From positions 1-5,797 of the IMG/VR virus record IMGVR_UViG_2778261506_000008: 5,797 bases of DNA. One strand, written 5' to 3'. This stretch comes from a virus. Lineage: Duplodnaviria; Heunggongvirae; Uroviricota; Caudoviricetes. This document shows, in pieces, positions 454 through 5,797 of the stretch. A model generated the notes under the pieces. That model saw only the letters and a list, made by a program, of their open reading frames with translations, had not been told where the DNA came from and did no database searches. The position numbers and the translations under genes were made by a program. The first letter of the stretch is position 1. Each line of letters starts with the position of its first letter.

Positions 454-480
454 CTGGAGCCGGACAGCAAAGACGGCCAG

Positions 481-1521
481 ATGGTGGCGCTGGTTGCGCT
501 GGCTATTCACGATGCCAATAACACGGCCATTACTGTTTACAACTGCTTCTCACCTGCTACGGGTTACGGCGCAGCGCTGACCAGTAACGTGAAAATTAAC
601 GGTATCGCGCGCAAAGGGGCGACGAACTCCACTGTGGATCTGCTGCTCACCGGCACTGCAGGGACAACTATCACGAACGGTACCGTTAAAGACACTAATA
701 ACGTGATCTGGCGTCTTCCTGCCTCAGTAGTGATTGGCGTTGACGGTACGGTTACGGCCACTGCCACTTGCTCAAACAGCGGCGCTGTCGCAGCGCTGGC
801 GGGGACAATTACTACCATCAACACACCGACTCGAGGCTGGACATCGGTAACCAACCCGGCGGCGGCCACCGTAGGCGCACCAGCAGAAACCGACGCAGAG
901 CTGCGCATCAGGCAGGGGCAGAGCGTCGCGCTACCCTCTATCACGCCGTTTGAGGGCGTTGACGGTGCGATTGCTAACGTTGCTGGCGTGACACGTCACA
1001 AGCTCTACGAAAATGATACTGGCGCGACCGATAGTAACGGGCTGCCGCCACACTCTATCTCAGCCATCGTGGACGGCGGGGACGTGACCGACATTGCCCA
1101 GACTATCCGGGGTAATAAAGGGCAGGGAACGGCGACCTACGGTACGACCTCTGTCACGGTACCGGACACTTACGGCAACCCACACGTGATCAGTTTTTCG
1201 CGTTCGACTGATGTTCCGATTTACGGGCATATCACACTGAAAGCCTTTACGGGCTACACGTCGCAAATTGGCGTGCAGATTCAGCAGGCCGTCGCGGATT
1301 ACATCAACGGGCTGACGATCGGTGATTCGGTTCTGCTGAGCCGCATATACTCCCCGGCGAACCTCGGCGTGGTGAGTGGTGGCAGTGCAAGCTATTACGA
1401 CATTCAGGAGCTGCTGATTGGCAAATCTGCCGGAACGGTAGCGGCGGCGAATATCAATATCGCCTACAACGAATCAGCGTCCTGTAAGCCGGAAAATATT
1501 GTTCTAACGGTGACGTCATGA
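481..1521 (+). CDS. Phage baseplate protein (baseplate J / Mu gp47 / e14 JayE-like), probably 5'-truncated by the IS1 insertion
   Basis: 346-codon ORF rich in Gly/Thr/Ala/Val, typical of a structural protein, sitting first in a coupled tail operon ahead of a tail fibre. The frame is open from the IS1 junction (454) to the first ATG at 481 and there is no Shine-Dalgarno before 481, so the true start probably lay upstream of the IS1. Stop overlaps the next start (ATGA at 1518-1521). Family assignment is from position and composition, not a confirmed domain match. Confidence 0.55.
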   Translation: MVALVALAIHDANNTAITVYNCFSPATGYGAALTSNVKINGIARKGATNSTVDLLLTGTAGTTITNGTVKDTNNVIWRLPASVVIGVDGTVTATATCSNSGAVAALAGTITTINTPTRGWTSVTNPAAATVGAPAETDAELRIRQGQSVALPSITPFEGVDGAIANVAGVTRHKLYENDTGATDSNGLPPHSISAIVDGGDVTDIAQTIRGNKGQGTATYGTTSVTVPDTYGNPHVISFSRSTDVPIYGHITLKAFTGYTSQIGVQIQQAVADYINGLTIGDSVLLSRIYSPANLGVVSGGSASYYDIQELLIGKSAGTVAAANINIAYNESASCKPENIVLTVTS

Positions 1522-2198
1522 GCAAGTACACAGATTTAATCACCAACTACCACGCCACCAGACCGAAATACTTTGATCACATCGACCTGAGCACCCGGCC
1601 GCTGATTGACATCACATCAGCCACCCGGGGGCTGGTTAGCGCATTTGACATTGATACGGCGGTAGGCGTCCAGCTTGATACCCTCGGGCTCTGGATCGGA
1701 CGTAGCCGTATAGTCAGCCAGCCCATTACGGGAGTTTATTTCAGCTGGGACACCGACGGGCTCGGATATGACCAGGGCGTCTGGCAAGGGCCGTATGATC
1801 CGGACTCAGGCTATACGTCGCTGAGCGATGACACCTACCGCATCATTCTGAAAGCAAAAATCGCTATCAACAACTGGGACGGCCGCAACGACTCTCTGCC
1901 GCCCATCCTTGACGCTGCGACTGCAGGCTCTGGCCTGAAGATGCAGATCGTCGACAACCAGGACATGACGATTTCGGTCTGGGTTTTCCCCGAGACTGAT
2001 ATTTCTGATGTGTCACTAGAACTGATCGCCGCTATCAAACAGGGCTATCTCACCGTAAAAGCTGCTGGCGTATGGGCCGGTGATGTGGAAACGCCTTCGG
2101 TAGAAACACCGTCCGAGGGCTCAAAATTCTTTGGTTTTGATATGGATAACGAATACATCGGCGGGTTCGATGTAGGAGCATGGGGGACTTTACTCTAA
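1518..2198 (+). CDS. Phage tail/baseplate protein (position of P2 gpI / Mu gp48 / e14 YmfQ)
   Basis: 226-codon ORF coupled to both neighbours (ATGA overlap at start, TAATG overlap at end) between the baseplate-J-like gene and the tail fibre gene. GGTGA-like SD 4 nt upstream. Function inferred from synteny only. Confidence 0.5.
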   Translation: MSKYTDLITNYHATRPKYFDHIDLSTRPLIDITSATRGLVSAFDIDTAVGVQLDTLGLWIGRSRIVSQPITGVYFSWDTDGLGYDQGVWQGPYDPDSGYTSLSDDTYRIILKAKIAINNWDGRNDSLPPILDAATAGSGLKMQIVDNQDMTISVWVFPETDISDVSLELIAAIKQGYLTVKAAGVWAGDVETPSVETPSEGSKFFGFDMDNEYIGGFDVGAWGTLL

Positions 2199-2959
2199 TG
2201 GCAACAAATAACTTTAAAGCGTTCGCGCTTGATCCTAATGCTAACGTCATGTCACAGGCTGACTGGGAATCGCTTCCGGCGTTGCTGTCCGGGTTTACCG
2301 CTGGTAAAGCATCCAGCGCTCAGGTCAACAAAGCCATTCGCCAGGCGACCACAATTGCCGCGCTGGTGGGGCAGTTTATTGCGAACTCCGGAGTAGATGC
2401 CCTGGACAATGCAGACGTTAACGGGCTGGTGACAAAATTCACGAATGCGCTTACCGCAAATCTCCGTTTGGGAGCTGGTGCTCCAGCTATAGGTATTCCT
2501 TTTTTCTGGCCGTCCTCGGCTATGCCAAATACGGTTATGACAGAATGGGCTGATATGGTATTTCTTAAGTTCAACGGAGCGACGTTCTCAGCGACCGCAT
2601 ACCCTAAATTAGCGCAGGTAATCCCTAGCTTAAAACTCACCGAAGCACGTGGCGAATTCCCACGGATTTGGGATGATGGTCGCGGAGTTGACTCAGGGCG
2701 AACCCTACTTAGCGCTCAAGGGGACGCTATTCGAAATATTACTGGCCAAATTATTGGCGCAAACTATAGAGCATGGCGTGGAGAGCCTACAGGGGTCTTT
2801 TCGTCAGCAGAATTGTCTCCAGGCAGTTCATTAAGTACAGATGGGACATCAAATACCAACGGCAGAGCAACCACTATGGATGTATCTCTTCAGGTCCCTA
2901 CTGCATCTGAAAATCGTCCACGTAACATAGCTTTTAACTTTTTAGTAAGGGCTAAATAA
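2198..2959 (+). CDS. Phage tail fibre protein with tail-collar domain
   Basis: N-terminus MATNNFKAFALDPNANVMSQADWESL is typical of Mu/e14-type side tail fibres. C-terminal half carries the collar signature (…TEARGEFPRIWDDGRGVDSGRTLLSAQGDAIRNITGQI…RPRNIAFNFLVRAK). Start chosen at the ATG overlapping the upstream stop (TAATG); an in-frame ATG at 2180 is an alternative. Confidence 0.8.
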   Translation: MATNNFKAFALDPNANVMSQADWESLPALLSGFTAGKASSAQVNKAIRQATTIAALVGQFIANSGVDALDNADVNGLVTKFTNALTANLRLGAGAPAIGIPFFWPSSAMPNTVMTEWADMVFLKFNGATFSATAYPKLAQVIPSLKLTEARGEFPRIWDDGRGVDSGRTLLSAQGDAIRNITGQIIGANYRAWRGEPTGVFSSAELSPGSSLSTDGTSNTNGRATTMDVSLQVPTASENRPRNIAFNFLVRAK

Positions 2960-3552
2960 TGAAACCAATTTTTGATAAAAATGGCCTGGCTACTGAATCA
3001 GGAAATATTCGCTGTTTTTATTACGATGAAAATACGAATGAATATATTGGTTGGTCAGATGAATATATTAATTTAGGTGTTAGCATGCCCAGTAACTCTA
3101 CCGATATTGAACCGGATCAGGAAGTAGACGGAATGATAGCTGTCTTTGTAAGCGGTGCCTGGAGGTATGAGGAGGATAATCGTGGAGAAATAGTCTACTC
3201 AACTGATACCGGCGAGCCTATGGAAATCGATTATATTGGCAAAGTTCGTGATGGTTTCACAAGAGTCGCCCCTTCAACCCCTTTCGACAGATGGGATGGT
3301 CAACGCTGGGTAATAGATGAAGATGCAAAGCATACTTCTGATGTTGTAAGTGCTGAAAAAGAAAAGGAGTTTAGAATTAATGAGGCTAATGAGTATATTA
3401 ATAGGATGCAATGGCCTGGTAAAGCATCCTTAGGGCGATTGAAAGAGACAGAAAAGGCTGAGTACAATAAATGGATTGATTATTTGGACGAACTTTTTTC
3501 CACGGATACATCAACGGCCCCAATGGTGAACTTCCCAAATAAACCAGAGTAG
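2959..3552 (+). CDS. Tail fibre assembly protein (Tfa chaperone, Caudovirales TAP family)
   Basis: 197-codon ORF starting at a TAATG overlap with the fibre gene, AAGGG SD 7 nt upstream. C-terminus …WIDYLDELFSTDTSTAPMVNFPNKPE resembles the conserved Tfa C-terminal motif (compare …VDTSTAPDIEWP…). Lower GC than the upstream tail genes. Confidence 0.8.
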   Translation: MKPIFDKNGLATESGNIRCFYYDENTNEYIGWSDEYINLGVSMPSNSTDIEPDQEVDGMIAVFVSGAWRYEEDNRGEIVYSTDTGEPMEIDYIGKVRDGFTRVAPSTPFDRWDGQRWVIDEDAKHTSDVVSAEKEKEFRINEANEYINRMQWPGKASLGRLKETEKAEYNKWIDYLDELFSTDTSTAPMVNFPNKPE

Positions 3553-3570
3553 GCATAAGCTATAGTATAA

Positions 3571-3593
3571 AGGGCATATTTGGCATATGCCCT
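3571..3593. terminator. Perfect 9-bp hairpin between the convergent tfa and acyltransferase genes (putative bidirectional terminator)
   Basis: AGGGCATAT-ttggc-ATATGCCCT, located 19 nt after the tfa stop and 14 nt after the acyltransferase stop, with A/T-rich flanks. Confidence 0.4.
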
Positions 3594-3606
3594 AATAAAA
3601 GGATTT

Positions 3607-4569
3607 TTATAAAAACAATGGTCGTTTGTAGACCTTCTTGAAAAGTGTAAGGGAGTACGATAAAGATAATGTGAGAACTATAATGGTAATAAATAACACT
3701 GATTTATTATTTATGCCGATTATGTCAAATATTTTATTTGTCGCTTTGATACAAAAAACATGTGCAAAGAAAATTGCTGTAGCAAAATCAGATAGTTTTT
3801 TTGAGTTTCCAGTCAAGGTTCCGCTTTTTGCAATTAAGAAGAGGATTGTAGATGTTGGTATGGAAAATATGAAAAGATCAATTGGTTTGTTTATTCCAAA
3901 AATCGCCTTGTTAATAATGCTTTCCGAAAGTAAAAGGCATATCGAGATTGCTAAAGTTGCATAAACTATTTTTTTGCTAAATTTCGAGAAAGTCTCAGTT
4001 ATGTTTAATTTATTAAGGAGAAAACCGAAGCATAAAAACGGGAAGCAATCAAATAAAAAATTCCTATATAGAGTTATTTTTATTTGCTCGTTCGTTATAA
4101 TTGTATTTACATATCCTTTGTTTACGATGTATTGAATAATTAATCCTATAAGGTATAGGGATAAGGAAGCAAGTAATAATTTTTCTGGGCGTAAATTTCT
4201 GCATTGCCTCAGAACAAGTGATGCCAGAATTAAACCCGGGATATACCATAATAGATGGTAACCAAAAAGAATGTTTAATAAAATGTCAATACCAGAATTG
4301 TTAGGTATCCAAAAATAAGAATACACGCACATCCAAGTAATATATAAAACGACTAATTTTTTTTGGTTTTTAAAGTATTCATTACTATTGATTGTTTTAT
4401 ATAGATAGTAACCGTTTATTATCAAAAACGTAGGTACTGCTATCCGGAATATTCCGTTGACCAGTAAATAACTCAAATCCATATTAAAAGATGCTAAGAA
4501 CTTCAAATGTAAAAGCATGACAAAAATTGACAGTAGAATTTTTAGTAGATCTAGGGTGATGTTTCTCAT
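3607..4569 (-). CDS. Integral membrane acyltransferase, acyltransferase-3 family (OafA/Oac-like), candidate O-antigen/LPS O-acetyltransferase
   Basis: 320-codon, highly hydrophobic multi-helix protein. Three acyltransferase-3 family motifs are present: N-terminal R-x4-D-x2-K…H (MRNITLDLLKILLSIFVMLLH), the RIAVPTFLIINGYYL block (family R…FF-x-SGF region), and HLLWYIPG (family HLWFL motif). Very AT-rich (by eye under ~30% GC), unlike its flanks. Weak SD. Confidence 0.7.
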   Translation of the reverse strand: MRNITLDLLKILLSIFVMLLHLKFLASFNMDLSYLLVNGIFRIAVPTFLIINGYYLYKTINSNEYFKNQKKLVVLYITWMCVYSYFWIPNNSGIDILLNILFGYHLLWYIPGLILASLVLRQCRNLRPEKLLLASLSLYLIGLIIQYIVNKGYVNTIITNEQIKITLYRNFLFDCFPFLCFGFLLNKLNITETFSKFSKKIVYATLAISICLLLSESIINKAIFGINKPIDLFIFSIPTSTILFLIAKSGTLTGNSKKLSDFATAIFFAHVFCIKATNKIFDIIGINNKSVLFITIIVLTLSLSYSLTLFKKVYKRPLFL

Positions 4570-4674
4570 GGTTTCATAAATGCCACTTTATTGATTTTTT
4601 CATATACTAACGTAATATTTTTATTATTTCACCAATAAATTGTCTGGCACACATGCATACTAAGTTCGGTTTGA

Positions 4675-4811
4675 AGGTTAAAGCTCGCGGAGGAGCTGTG
4701 GGCTGAAGCAGGAAGATTGATTGCGGCCGGGAAACCCTGCCAGTGCGTGGAGATAATTTATGATGGGGCGTTTTCAAGCTGTACCTGAAGCCCCCGGCGG
4801 GAAATGTGTGA
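4675..4811 (+). pseudogene. 3' remnant of a serine DNA invertase gene (Gin/Pin/Hin/Cin family), C-terminal HTH domain only, with a 1-nt frameshift
   Basis: Frame 1 (4675-4785) reads RLKLAEELWAEAGRLIAAGKPCQCVEIIYDGAFS; shifting by one nucleotide near 4777 continues as LYLKPPAGNV then stop (4809-4811). This parallels the invertase C-terminus as I recall it (Gin: …KAEWEQAGRLLAQGIPRKQVALIYDVALSTLYKKHPA). There is no start codon, and the upstream sequence is the AT-rich cassette on the opposite strand, so the catalytic N-terminal ~150 codons are missing. Confidence 0.55.
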
Positions 4812-4819
4812 AGTAAATG

Positions 4820-4850
4820 CAGGCGGCCTAGACGACAAACTGGCCGCCTG
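4820..4850. terminator. GC-rich hairpin between the invertase remnant (+) and the dinI-like gene (-); putative bidirectional terminator
   Basis: CAGGCGGCC-(13 nt loop)-GGCCGCCTG, a perfect 9-bp stem 7 nt downstream of the dinI-like stop and 9 nt downstream of the invertase-remnant stop, followed by TTTCACGTT on the + strand. Confidence 0.35.
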
Positions 4851-4857
4851 TTTCACG

Positions 4858-5124
4858 TTACATCGCAACTTGACGCACAGATGGGAGCTCAGACACCAAC
4901 CATATATCGGCCTCTTCAAACATATCCTCAAGCATGCGGTTCAGCTTCTCCCGATCGCTTTTGCTGGCATCGCTATTCAGGCCGTTCGCTTGCATCGGCT
5001 TCACCCTTACTTCGGCATCAGGGAAAATCTGGTGCACTCGTTTCGTCAGCTCTGCCAGGATAATCTCTCTGGCCCCTTCGAGCCCCTCTACATTGCGTTT
5101 GTCATAAACCAGTTCAACGAACAT
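4858..5124 (-). CDS. DinI-family protein (DNA-damage-inducible protein I-like, RecA-filament modulator), prophage-encoded
   Basis: 88-codon ORF; …ILAELTKRVHQIFPDAEVRVKPMQANGLNSDASKSDREKLNRMLEDMFEEADIWLVSE aligns with E. coli DinI from memory (…LAGELSRRIQYAFPDNEGHVSVRYAAANNLSVIGATKEDKQRISEILQETWESADDWFVSE). Strong SD GGAGG 5 nt before the ATG. LexA boxes lie upstream. Confidence 0.85.
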   Translation of the reverse strand: MFVELVYDKRNVEGLEGAREIILAELTKRVHQIFPDAEVRVKPMQANGLNSDASKSDREKLNRMLEDMFEEADIWLVSELPSVRQVAM

Positions 5125-5141
5125 AAAAGCCTCCGGAAAAC

Positions 5142-5189
5142 CACTGTGGTTGTATACAGTGTTTTTACTGTAAAAATAAACAGTGTCAA
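5142..5189 (-). promoter_or_regulatory. Tandem LexA operators (SOS boxes) overlapping the dinI-like promoter
   Basis: Two CTGT-N8-ACAG motifs: cores at 5144-5159 (CTGTggttgtatACAG) and 5168-5183 (CTGTaaaaataaACAG), the second matching the 20-mer consensus TACTGTATATATATACAGTA closely. On the gene strand a perfect -35 TTGACA (5184-5189) abuts box 2; candidate -10 hexamers are TAAAAA (5162-5167) or TATACA (5151-5156). Boxes sit about 20-60 nt upstream of the dinI-like ATG. Confidence 0.7.
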
Positions 5190-5246
5190 GGCGAGCGGGG
5201 CGCGAAAGGGAGAGGGGGTTTTGTTACCCTTAGTTACAAATAGAAA

Positions 5247-5277
5247 AACCCCAGACCGTGAGATCTGGGGTTCTTTT
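5247..5277 (-). terminator. Rho-independent terminator (bidirectional) between ssrA and the dinI-like promoter
   Basis: Stem AACCCCAGA / TCTGGGGTT (9 bp, 8-nt loop) flanked by U-runs on both strands (TTCTTTT on +, TTTTTCTATTT on -). Lies about 125-150 nt downstream of the mature tmRNA 3' end. Confidence 0.5.
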
Positions 5278-5395
5278 AAAGTGCACGTGCATTTCACGTG
5301 TATATTTTTGTCTTTTCTCGGTCTGCCTGCTGTCTGGTCAGTGTCCGTAAGTGGCTGTTTTTATTGCCGCTGTCCGGTTGCAGTCCTATCAAAAG

Positions 5396-5758
5396 TGGTG
5401 GAGCTGGCGGGAGTTGAACCCGCGTCCGAAATTCCTACATCCTCGGTACTACATGCTTAGTCAGTCTTTACATTCGCTTGCCAGCTGCGGACGGACACGC
5501 CACTAACAAACTAGCCTGATTAAGTTTTAACGCTTCAACCCCAGGCAGGACTTCCACGCGATCTCTTTTGGGTTTGACCTCTCTTGATCCCCGTCCTAAG
5601 AGCGGAGGCTAGGGAGAGAGGGCTCTAAGCAGGTTATTAAGCTGCTAAAGCGTAGTTTTCGTCGTTTGCGACTATTTTTTGCGGCTTTTTACGAGGCCAA
5701 CCGCCCCTCGGCATGCACCTTGGGTTTCGCAAATCCCGTCGAATCCAGAATCAGCCCC
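5396..5758 (-). ncRNA. ssrA: tmRNA (SsrA), complete 363-nt mature sequence
   Basis: Reverse complement begins GGGGCTGATTCTGGATTCGACGGG and ends …CCCGCCAGCTCCACCA, and contains the tag template GCAAACGACGAAAACTACGCTTTAGCAGCTTAA (ANDENYALAA). Essentially identical to the E. coli tmRNA I recall. Confidence 0.97.
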
Positions 5759-5772
5759 AATGTGTAAAGGTA

Positions 5773-5778
5773 AGTATA
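5773..5778 (-). promoter_or_regulatory. Putative -10 hexamer (TATACT) of the ssrA promoter
   Basis: TATACT lies 14 nt upstream of the mature tmRNA 5' end, consistent with a precursor start a few nt upstream of the mature end. The -35 would lie beyond the window. Confidence 0.4.
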
Positions 5779-5797
5779 CCAGATTTATGAGCGCCAT

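Follow-up and report, generated by a model that had tools for sequence, protein, structure and literature searches.

Background

The closest described counterparts of the locus reported here are the G segment of phage Mu (invertase Gin), the C segment of P1 (Cin) and the P segment of e14 (Pin). In all three the order is fibre gene, tfa (tail fibre assembly), the inverted tfa'-fibre' pair and the invertase gene, which is transcribed in the direction of the fibre gene. The published core of the gix crossover site is CTGT AAA CC GA GG TTT TGGA (PMC3985619), and a recombinational (Fis-dependent) enhancer was located in the 5' part of Mu gin (Kahmann 1985, as cited in PMC3798978). In a survey of programmed inversions, DUF2612 proteins were 25.7-fold enriched beside inversion targets (PMC9881135). 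Acyltransferases of the AT3 family are also found next to tail fibre genes: in Salmonella, oafA is flanked by umuD and a phage tfa gene (PMC9426603), and O-acetylation of the O-antigen by AT3 proteins alters both serotype and phage sensitivity (PMC9833829).

Organisation of the prophage end

The stretch of DNA analysed (5,797 bases, hereafter the window) is the right end of a defective prophage located at ssrA in E. coli. It is matched at 100% identity by contig NLVP01000052.1 (GCA_002511785.1), whose host flank shows 99.3-99.5% identity with E. coli chromosomes. The window proteins are sourced as E. coli, and copies more than 90% identical are also present in Enterobacter kobei. The following features were identified:

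1-453: IS1 end, with terminal repeat at 431-453
481-1521: baseplate J gene, cut by IS1
1518-2198: DUF2612 wedge protein gene
2198-2959, + strand: tail fibre gene, constant N-terminal part up to 2473 and variable C-terminal part after it
2451-2476, + strand: degenerate gix-like 26-bp crossover site, within the fibre gene
2959-3552, + strand: tail fibre assembly gene tfa (Pfam Caudo_TAP, E 6e-26)
3553 to about 4668, - strand: low-GC foreign cassette (hairpin, AT3 acyltransferase and leader)
3571-3593: hairpin in the cassette
3607-4569, - strand: AT3 acyltransferase gene, 320 aa (Pfam Acyl_transf_3)
4570-4668, - strand: AT-rich leader of the acyltransferase
4669-4811, + strand: invertase pseudogene stub, codons about 139-184 (HTH_7)
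4819-4851, no strand: hairpin in the native spacer that separates invertase and dinI, which are convergent; kept along with the stub (folding energy -26.9 kcal/mol, z = -4.6)
4858-5124, - strand: DinI-family gene (Pfam DinI, E 3e-22; synteny)
5396-5758, - strand: ssrA (tmRNA), prophage attachment site

The GC content is 0.27-0.33 across 3600-4600 and 0.47-0.55 beyond 4600. When the window was scanned against Rfam, the tmRNA was the sole match. The baseplate J gene is truncated by IS1, and the homology of all the relatives begins at 454; the product has 346 aa here versus 399 aa in most other carriers, which indicates that this copy is defective. At the opposite end, homology with four of the carrier contigs (L006, L008, L010 and L011) ends at 5418, within the 3' end of ssrA, and a P4-like satellite (Psu, Ogr/Delta, AlpA, Ash, primase) is found beyond this point, indicating that the attachment site is occupied in tandem in these contigs.

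The remnant of the invertase gene

Similarity searches confirmed that positions from about 4669 to 4811 (+ strand) correspond to what is left, at the 3' end, of a serine DNA invertase gene of the Gin/Pin type; this remnant is predicted to be non-functional. Six intact Gin/Pin-type invertases taken from related loci were used as tblastn queries, with Mu Gin added. Residues 140-174 of the six aligned with 4675-4779 in frame 1 (54-60% identity, E values from 6e-8 to 1e-6), and residues 171-183 with 4767-4805 in frame 3; Mu Gin showed 48% identity over residues 142-174. With a DNA profile built from the six intact genes, nhmmer aligned 4673-4807 with model positions 416-551 out of 555 (E 1.7e-21). 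The frame-repaired peptide, compared with all PDB sequences, matched Mu Gin alone (3uj3, E 5e-6; 4m6f, E 2e-4) over residues 142-181. Among 50,697 phage records blastn matched a single gene, which in Yersinia phage YP3 is annotated as 'serine recombinase gin' (74.8% over 134 nt, E 2e-15), and among 5,426 complete E. coli genomes the stub matched only two genes, both annotated as 'recombinase family protein'. Neither the raw nor the frame-repaired window peptides were assigned to any family by Pfam, HTH_7 included; hence, homology was established pairwise and with the DNA profile.

In the intact relatives, Pfam locates the Resolvase domain at residues 3-135 and HTH_7 at residues 138-180. Since the remnant covers residues from about 139 to 184, the HTH domain alone is left. 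The C-terminal HTH_7 domain is present in the stub by homology to Gin residues 142-181, and the Resolvase catalytic domain (PF00239), with its active-site serine, is absent. In the alignment with the DNA profile the first 415 nt of the gene are missing; about 75% of the gene has gone, and with it the 5' region and the catalytic domain. The stub, which has no start codon and is directly preceded by an in-frame TGA (4672-4674), is translated as KLAEELWAEAGRLIAAGKPCQCVEIIYDGAFS in frame 1 and then, after a 1-nt deletion at 4775/4776 (codon 173) that shifts the frame, as KLYLKPPAGNV* in frame 3, ending at the natural stop (TGA, 4809-4811). No + strand ORF of at least 30 aa was found in the stub region. 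Stretch 4640-4668 belongs to the leader of the acyltransferase, not to the invertase, and is 81% common with a diverged sister locus (see below). By these alignments, the invertase-derived sequence begins at about 4669-4673 and the breakpoint falls at the domain boundary.

A preliminary description of the window, made from its sequence, had recognised at 4640-4811 only the C-terminal HTH domain of a serine invertase, with a frameshift and without a start codon. This reading was borne out by the HTH_7 remnant, the deletion at 4775/4776 and the TGA at 4672-4674, and the C-termini of Gin/Pin-type invertases were all that the translated region matched. Regarding its extent, the right end at 4811 was correct and the start had to be moved to about 4669-4673. 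The jump in GC content that had been taken to mark a junction at about 4640-4675 is real (0.33 in 4501-4700 versus 0.545 in 4701-4900), but the breakpoint lies at about 4669-4673 and not at 4640.

Intact relatives and ancestral gene order

The right-hand part of the window is collinear without interruption with E. coli isolate 44 from 4680 to 5797 (89.5% identity over 1,123 bp). In this isolate the order is tfa, an intact 184-aa invertase that is a close homologue of Gin (PDB 3uj3, E 9e-90), the same spacer hairpin, DinI and ssrA. The spacer hairpin of the window (4819-4851) aligns with the equivalent hairpin of the intact loci, and the position of DinI immediately to the right of the invertase is conserved among related prophages. 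The nearest relative of the left, or tail, module is a prophage of E. coli Sx181-0-1, with 95.3% identity over window positions 454-2473. Its genes follow the order baseplate J, DUF2612, fibre, tfa, inverted tfa' and fibre', invertase and convergent DinI, and it contains inverted repeats of 67 nt at 6076-6142 and 7588-7654. Identity between the window and Sx181-0-1 is 95% on the left and 80% on the right. A full switch ending in pinE is present in TUM11352, an e14-like prophage at ssrA, and the same switch order, with the invertase followed by DinI, was found in AH01, an e14-like prophage at icd. The baseplate module of Yersinia phage YP3 is 85% identical to that of the window.

The variable fibre-tfa cassette of the window was also searched for in combination with an intact switch; the only matches, located where the fibre gene meets tfa, were about 170-235 nt long and covered no more than 22% of the query. 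No genome carried this fibre-tfa cassette together with tfa'-fibre' and an intact invertase, and the ancestral state is therefore reconstructed from relatives. When 3500-5400 was compared by megablast with the 5,426 complete E. coli genomes, only the DinI/ssrA part was matched, and the cassette and the stub were found in none of them.

The YP3 record (PV092592.1) contains the baseplate J-DUF2612 region twice, at 409-2277 and at 30868-32589, and one of the two copies is followed by tfa and gin without a fibre gene between them. This arrangement could be an error of assembly at a region that is invertible or variable.

An orphan crossover site in a mosaic fibre gene

The fibre gene contains a gix-like site at 2451-2476 (TTACCGCAAATC TC CGTTTGGGAGCT), at the junction between its constant and variable parts. 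The core of this site (AAATCTCCGTTTGGGA, at 2458-2473) has 2 mismatches to AAACCNNGGTTTGGGA. Alignment of the window fibre gene with four intact switches showed that their eight crossover sites all read AAAC[C/G/A]T[T/C]GGTTTGGGA; the two substitutions unique to the window adjoin the 2-bp core, at positions that are invariant in the eight intact sites. Two inverted gix-like sites were present in the four invertase-bearing loci examined, none was found in four of the six invertase-less relatives sampled (DX6, SEN34, 25-07338 and LHM10-1), and exactly one, mutated, was found in the window. This indicates that the site is not a generic element of these fibre genes.

The mosaic break of the fibre gene coincides with the crossover site: homology to Sx181-0-1 (95% DNA identity for the constant part) ends at 2473, and homology to the e14-type variable cassette of L017 starts at 2455. 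The variable part of the fibre and tfa show 50% and 47% protein identity, respectively, with the invertible segment of L017 (e14-like), and the tfa gene at 2959-3552 is the surviving half of a former invertible segment. The window has a single variable part and a single tfa, whereas Sx181-0-1 has both sets; with one fibre/tfa set, inversion is impossible.

The same degenerate site (AAATCTCCGTTTGGGA) was found in the prophage of E. coli 730V1 (L025 6889-6904), so the two site mutations predate the split of the lineages. This prophage carries the fibre-variable/tfa type of the window (L025 7900-8250) and ends at a tRNA attachment site directly after tfa. In a different case, the fibre gene of the BEN2908 prophage (L027 7143-7158) contains a single near-consensus gix-like site (ATACCTTGGTTTGGGA) in a locus with no invertase and with a DX6-type acyltransferase after tfa, possibly as a result of a second, independent loss of the switch.

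Sister loci and age of the truncation

Two relatives of the acyltransferase (P0037 and P0038, 83% identity) are encoded in the metagenomic contigs L028-L032, which are 81% identical to window positions 2818-5192 and have the same order: C-terminal fragment of the fibre gene, tfa, acyltransferase, stub and DinI. In the DNA profile their stub starts at position 416, as it does in the window, and the junction AGT TYG GTT TGA WGG TYA AAG is common to both. The presence of one breakpoint and one junction in lineages that are 81% identical indicates that the truncation happened once, before the split, and that the event is ancient and did not take place in this strain. The sister stub has no frameshift and reaches 29.4 bits with Pfam HTH_7 (L028; cut-off 23.8), with replacements at residues that are invariant in the intact enzymes (A149V/F, Q150L, G158A and V164R/G). 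The stub is the same in all ten carrier contigs compared, apart from a single SNP in one contig.

Segment by segment, the window and L028 showed the following identities:

Fibre C-terminal part: 88%
tfa: 83%
Acyltransferase gene: 85% (codon positions 88.5 / 92.5 / 73.8)
Acyltransferase leader: 81%
Stub: 68%
Spacer: 54%
DinI: 78%

The codon-position pattern of the acyltransferase indicates purifying selection, and the stub changes at least as fast as synonymous sites, as corresponds to a neutral fossil. Both stubs are nearest to YP3 gin (window 73%, sister 86%), from which they have decayed unequally, by 27% and 14%, as a strict clock would not predict. An origin of the window stub from another invertase allele (L002-like, by gene conversion) was considered and rejected, since YP3 gin is the nearest allele for the window stub and the sister stub alike.

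In L028-L032 the acyltransferase ORF is intact, and tfa and DinI are broken (e.g. L030 7001-7963, 8105-8479 and 6445-6706); two more AT3 genes, one of them fused to SGNH, lie 3-6 kb off. It would seem that in these contigs the host retained the moron once the phage had decayed.

The acyltransferase cassette and the slot after tfa

The acyltransferase matches Acyl_transf_3 (PF01757) over residues 5-308 of 320 (E 1.7e-17, 64 bits versus a cut-off of 31). Its gene has a GC content of 0.295, versus about 0.55 in the flanks, is located on the opposite strand with a flanking hairpin, and is absent from Sx181-0-1, 25-07338 and 730V1; atypical composition, an own transcription unit and optional presence are thus combined in it. 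Among species-representative genomes its nearest relatives were found in Chryseobacterium only (32-37% identity), and a 36% homologue lies inside a Wzx/EpsG/GT4/Caps_synth cluster, which points to a surface polysaccharide as the probable substrate. The protein is most likely a surface-polysaccharide (O-antigen) O-acetylase, encoded by a lysogenic-conversion moron. A scan of IMG/VR with the acyltransferase gave no match, and no direct repeats of the kind left by a transposon-like insertion were found flanking the cassette. One promoter-like match for the acyltransferase is located in its own AT-rich leader (4650-4623); the number of matches in the promoter scan was not above that of shuffled sequences (8 versus 6.2 +/- 2.4).

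In related prophages the slot after tfa is variable. It contains the intact switch in Sx181-0-1 and is empty in 25-07338 and 730V1. At least four AT3 types, mutually unrelated or only distantly related, occupy it in other cases: that of the window, that of DX6 and BEN2908 (91% identical to each other), that of SEN34 and that of LHM10-1. No pairwise similarity was detected between the window acyltransferase and the other slot acyltransferases, and neither tblastn nor nhmmer revealed an invertase stub in DX6, SEN34, LHM10-1, BEN2908 or L038. In SEN34-like prophages this slot is a recurrent hotspot for morons. Besides that of the window, three low-GC AT3 types (32-36%) were observed there, each immediately following tfa and on the other strand; AT3 genes at the slot are located at L004 6816-7820, L019 9317-10408, L026 7780-8874 and L027 8296-9333.

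In a P2-like prophage of Klebsiella (L033 5441-8323), a gene for a 49%-identical acyltransferase was observed between a tail-fibre gene and a tailspike gene accompanied by an 87-aa gene. The sheath-to-U tail operon of this prophage is convergent with the baseplate-fibre operon, an orientation that presumably differs from that of the P2 genes.

A second clade of acyltransferases (L036, L037 and L039) is 46-50% identical to that of the window. An HTH_7-like stub lies 5' of the acyltransferase in this clade (L036 6603-6791; L039 upstream of 1303), in a region with no DNA homology to the upstream region of the window. A patch of about 160 nt, comprising the 3' half of the stub, a hairpin with a U7 tail on the other strand and about 45 nt, is about 90% identical between L036 and L039, versus 58% at third codon positions of the acyltransferase; no credible Rfam match was found upstream of the acyltransferase in L036. 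The patch may reflect an independent event, a recent exchange or constraint. The presence of a stub beside the acyltransferase in this second clade could indicate that the association is more than accidental.

Proposed history of the locus and alternative explanations

The stub is very probably the fossil of a Mu-type switch that was lost where the acyltransferase cassette now sits. The ancestor would have been a SEN34/Brunovirus-like (YP3-like) myovirus with a switch of the Mu G-segment type at its right end, arranged as fibre (constant), gixL, fibre (variable)-tfa, inverted tfa'-fibre', gixR, invertase, convergent dinI and att. A single, old illegitimate recombination, extending from just past the tfa stop codon to about codon 139 of the invertase, would have taken out tfa', fibre' and gixR and, from the invertase gene, the whole catalytic domain together with the 5' part, which in Mu contains the enhancer. 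The resulting gap would be the one now filled by the 1.1-kb cassette of 29.5% GC, with its oppositely oriented AT3 acyltransferase and leader. Loss and gain may have been a single event, in which the cassette caused the loss in one step, or the cassette may have filled an earlier deletion. After the event the fibre would have been frozen in one orientation, and the orphan gixL and the HTH stub would have decayed neutrally since then. It was probably at the gix site that the right-hand module became linked to the Sx181-like module on the left.

In the preliminary description, the invertase gene was expected downstream of an invertible segment and in the direction of the fibre genes, an order which is indeed that of Sx181-0-1 and TUM11352; among intact related prophages the predicted arrangement is also matched by isolate 44 (tfa, invertase, DinI, ssrA). 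The proposal that the cassette stands in place of an invertible switch is supported by the order in Sx181-0-1, by the gix relic and by the AT3 cassette filling the gap. A residual crossover site had been anticipated at about 2550-2650; one degenerate gix-like site does exist, but at 2451-2476.

One important question is whether the stub has been read correctly as an invertase remnant. Chance or generic HTH similarity might be argued from the failure of the Pfam HTH_7 model to detect the window peptide even when frame-repaired. This explanation is refuted, and has practically no probability left, on the statistics of the profile (1.7e-21) and gin (2e-15) matches and on the PDB result, restricted to Gin; moreover, 1.1 kb are collinear with an intact locus and the sister copy clears the HTH_7 threshold. 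It could also be considered that the acyltransferase was the first occupant of the tfa/dinI slot, as in DX6 and SEN34, and that an invertase fragment was imported later, so that no switch was displaced. DX6, BEN2908, LHM10-1 and SEN34 do carry an acyltransferase right after tfa with no trace of an invertase, and the prophage is a mosaic, as evidenced by the unequal identity to Sx181-0-1 on its two sides. Against this stand the orphan gix-like site in the fibre gene, which has no counterpart in four of the six sampled invertase-less relatives, a variable fibre part and a tfa that belong to families found inside invertible segments, the collinearity of the stub with its native 3' spacer and dinI, and the lack of relationship between the window acyltransferase and the other occupants of the slot. 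Hence, this order of events is very improbable.

The stub might, on the other hand, have been retained for a function, in the promoter or regulation of the divergently placed acyltransferase, as a terminator module of dinI or as a homology arm that, together with tfa or dinI, would allow the acyltransferase cassette to enter any invertase-bearing phage by recombination. Its persistence beside the acyltransferase in 81%-identical lineages is consistent with this, as are the strong structure of the spacer hairpin (4819-4851) and the second clade, with an HTH_7-like stub in the same relative position and a 3' half plus hairpin about 90% identical between L036 and L039. However, the identity of the stub between the window and L028 is the lowest except for that of the spacer and is below that of third codon positions of the acyltransferase. 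The stub also lacks a start codon, is preceded by a stop and contains a frameshift. The sole promoter-like match for the acyltransferase sits in its leader, and such matches are no more frequent in the scan than in shuffles. Both stubs come from one YP3-like allele, and no re-sampling of other alleles was seen. A retained function is therefore quite improbable. A broader proposal is that an AT3 gene plus an invertase HTH stub forms a recurrent, possibly self-propagating module, in which the stub and tfa/dinI would act as homology arms overwriting the switch of any invertase-bearing phage, and unrelated AT3 morons would repeatedly have occupied the place of the switch in SEN34-like, e14-like and P2-like prophages, or else that the L036/L039 patch is a functional RNA or regulatory element. 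We regard this proposal as unlikely; in both versions, the phages would be giving up flexibility in host range and gaining receptor masking.

Significance and comparison with known systems

A Mu-type switch lost to an acyltransferase cassette, the reading preferred here, would be a dated example of modular prophage evolution, in which a variation system was lost where a lysogenic-conversion gene was gained, with both scars still readable as the orphan crossover site and the HTH stub cut at a domain boundary. It opens no new mechanism and settles no long-standing question: the stub is a familiar kind of prophage decay, and partial invertase genes are also present in other cryptic E. coli prophages. 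What is added here is a precise breakpoint, the orphan site, evidence for an old event and a neutral stub, and the recurrent use of the slot by unrelated AT3 morons. For annotation, 4669-4811 should be marked as an invertase pseudogene, and no fibre inversion is to be expected in these lysogens. The hotspot in the slot bears on the prediction of serotype conversion and receptor masking in E. coli, Salmonella and Enterobacter.

The acyltransferase resembles Oac of Sf6 and OafA of S. Typhimurium in being a membrane protein of the Acyl_transf_3 family, encoded by a low-GC gene at a prophage end beside tail-fibre genes; in contrast to the phage-borne AT3 O-antigen acetylases, it is matched by no PHROGs family, and its role as an O-acetylase is putative. 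With regard to the switches of Mu, P1 and e14, the stub is homologous to the DNA-binding domain of Gin (residues 142-181) and the orphan site shares the crossover core of Mu gix (AAACC-NN-GGTTT), whereas the window has one mutated crossover site and no catalytic domain, and its baseplate module (baseplate J plus DUF2612) is SEN34/Brunovirus-like, unlike that of Mu. The switch of Sx181-0-1 (NZ_CP078137.1 700815-703596) has a left module 95% identical to that of the window, and YP3 gin is the intact allele closest to the stub; both differ from the window in having complete 184-aa invertases, and Sx181-0-1 also in having both cassette halves. In isolate 44, a partial 'recombinase family protein' gene, which we take to be pinH of K-12, lies between ypjCB and ypjA in an ssrA-linked island (L003 2117-2284). 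Like the stub, this fragment is a truncated Pin-type invertase gene in a decaying ssrA-linked prophage region, but it lacks both ends and has no moron attached, whereas in the window the break falls between the two domains and the stub lies directly against a foreign gene.
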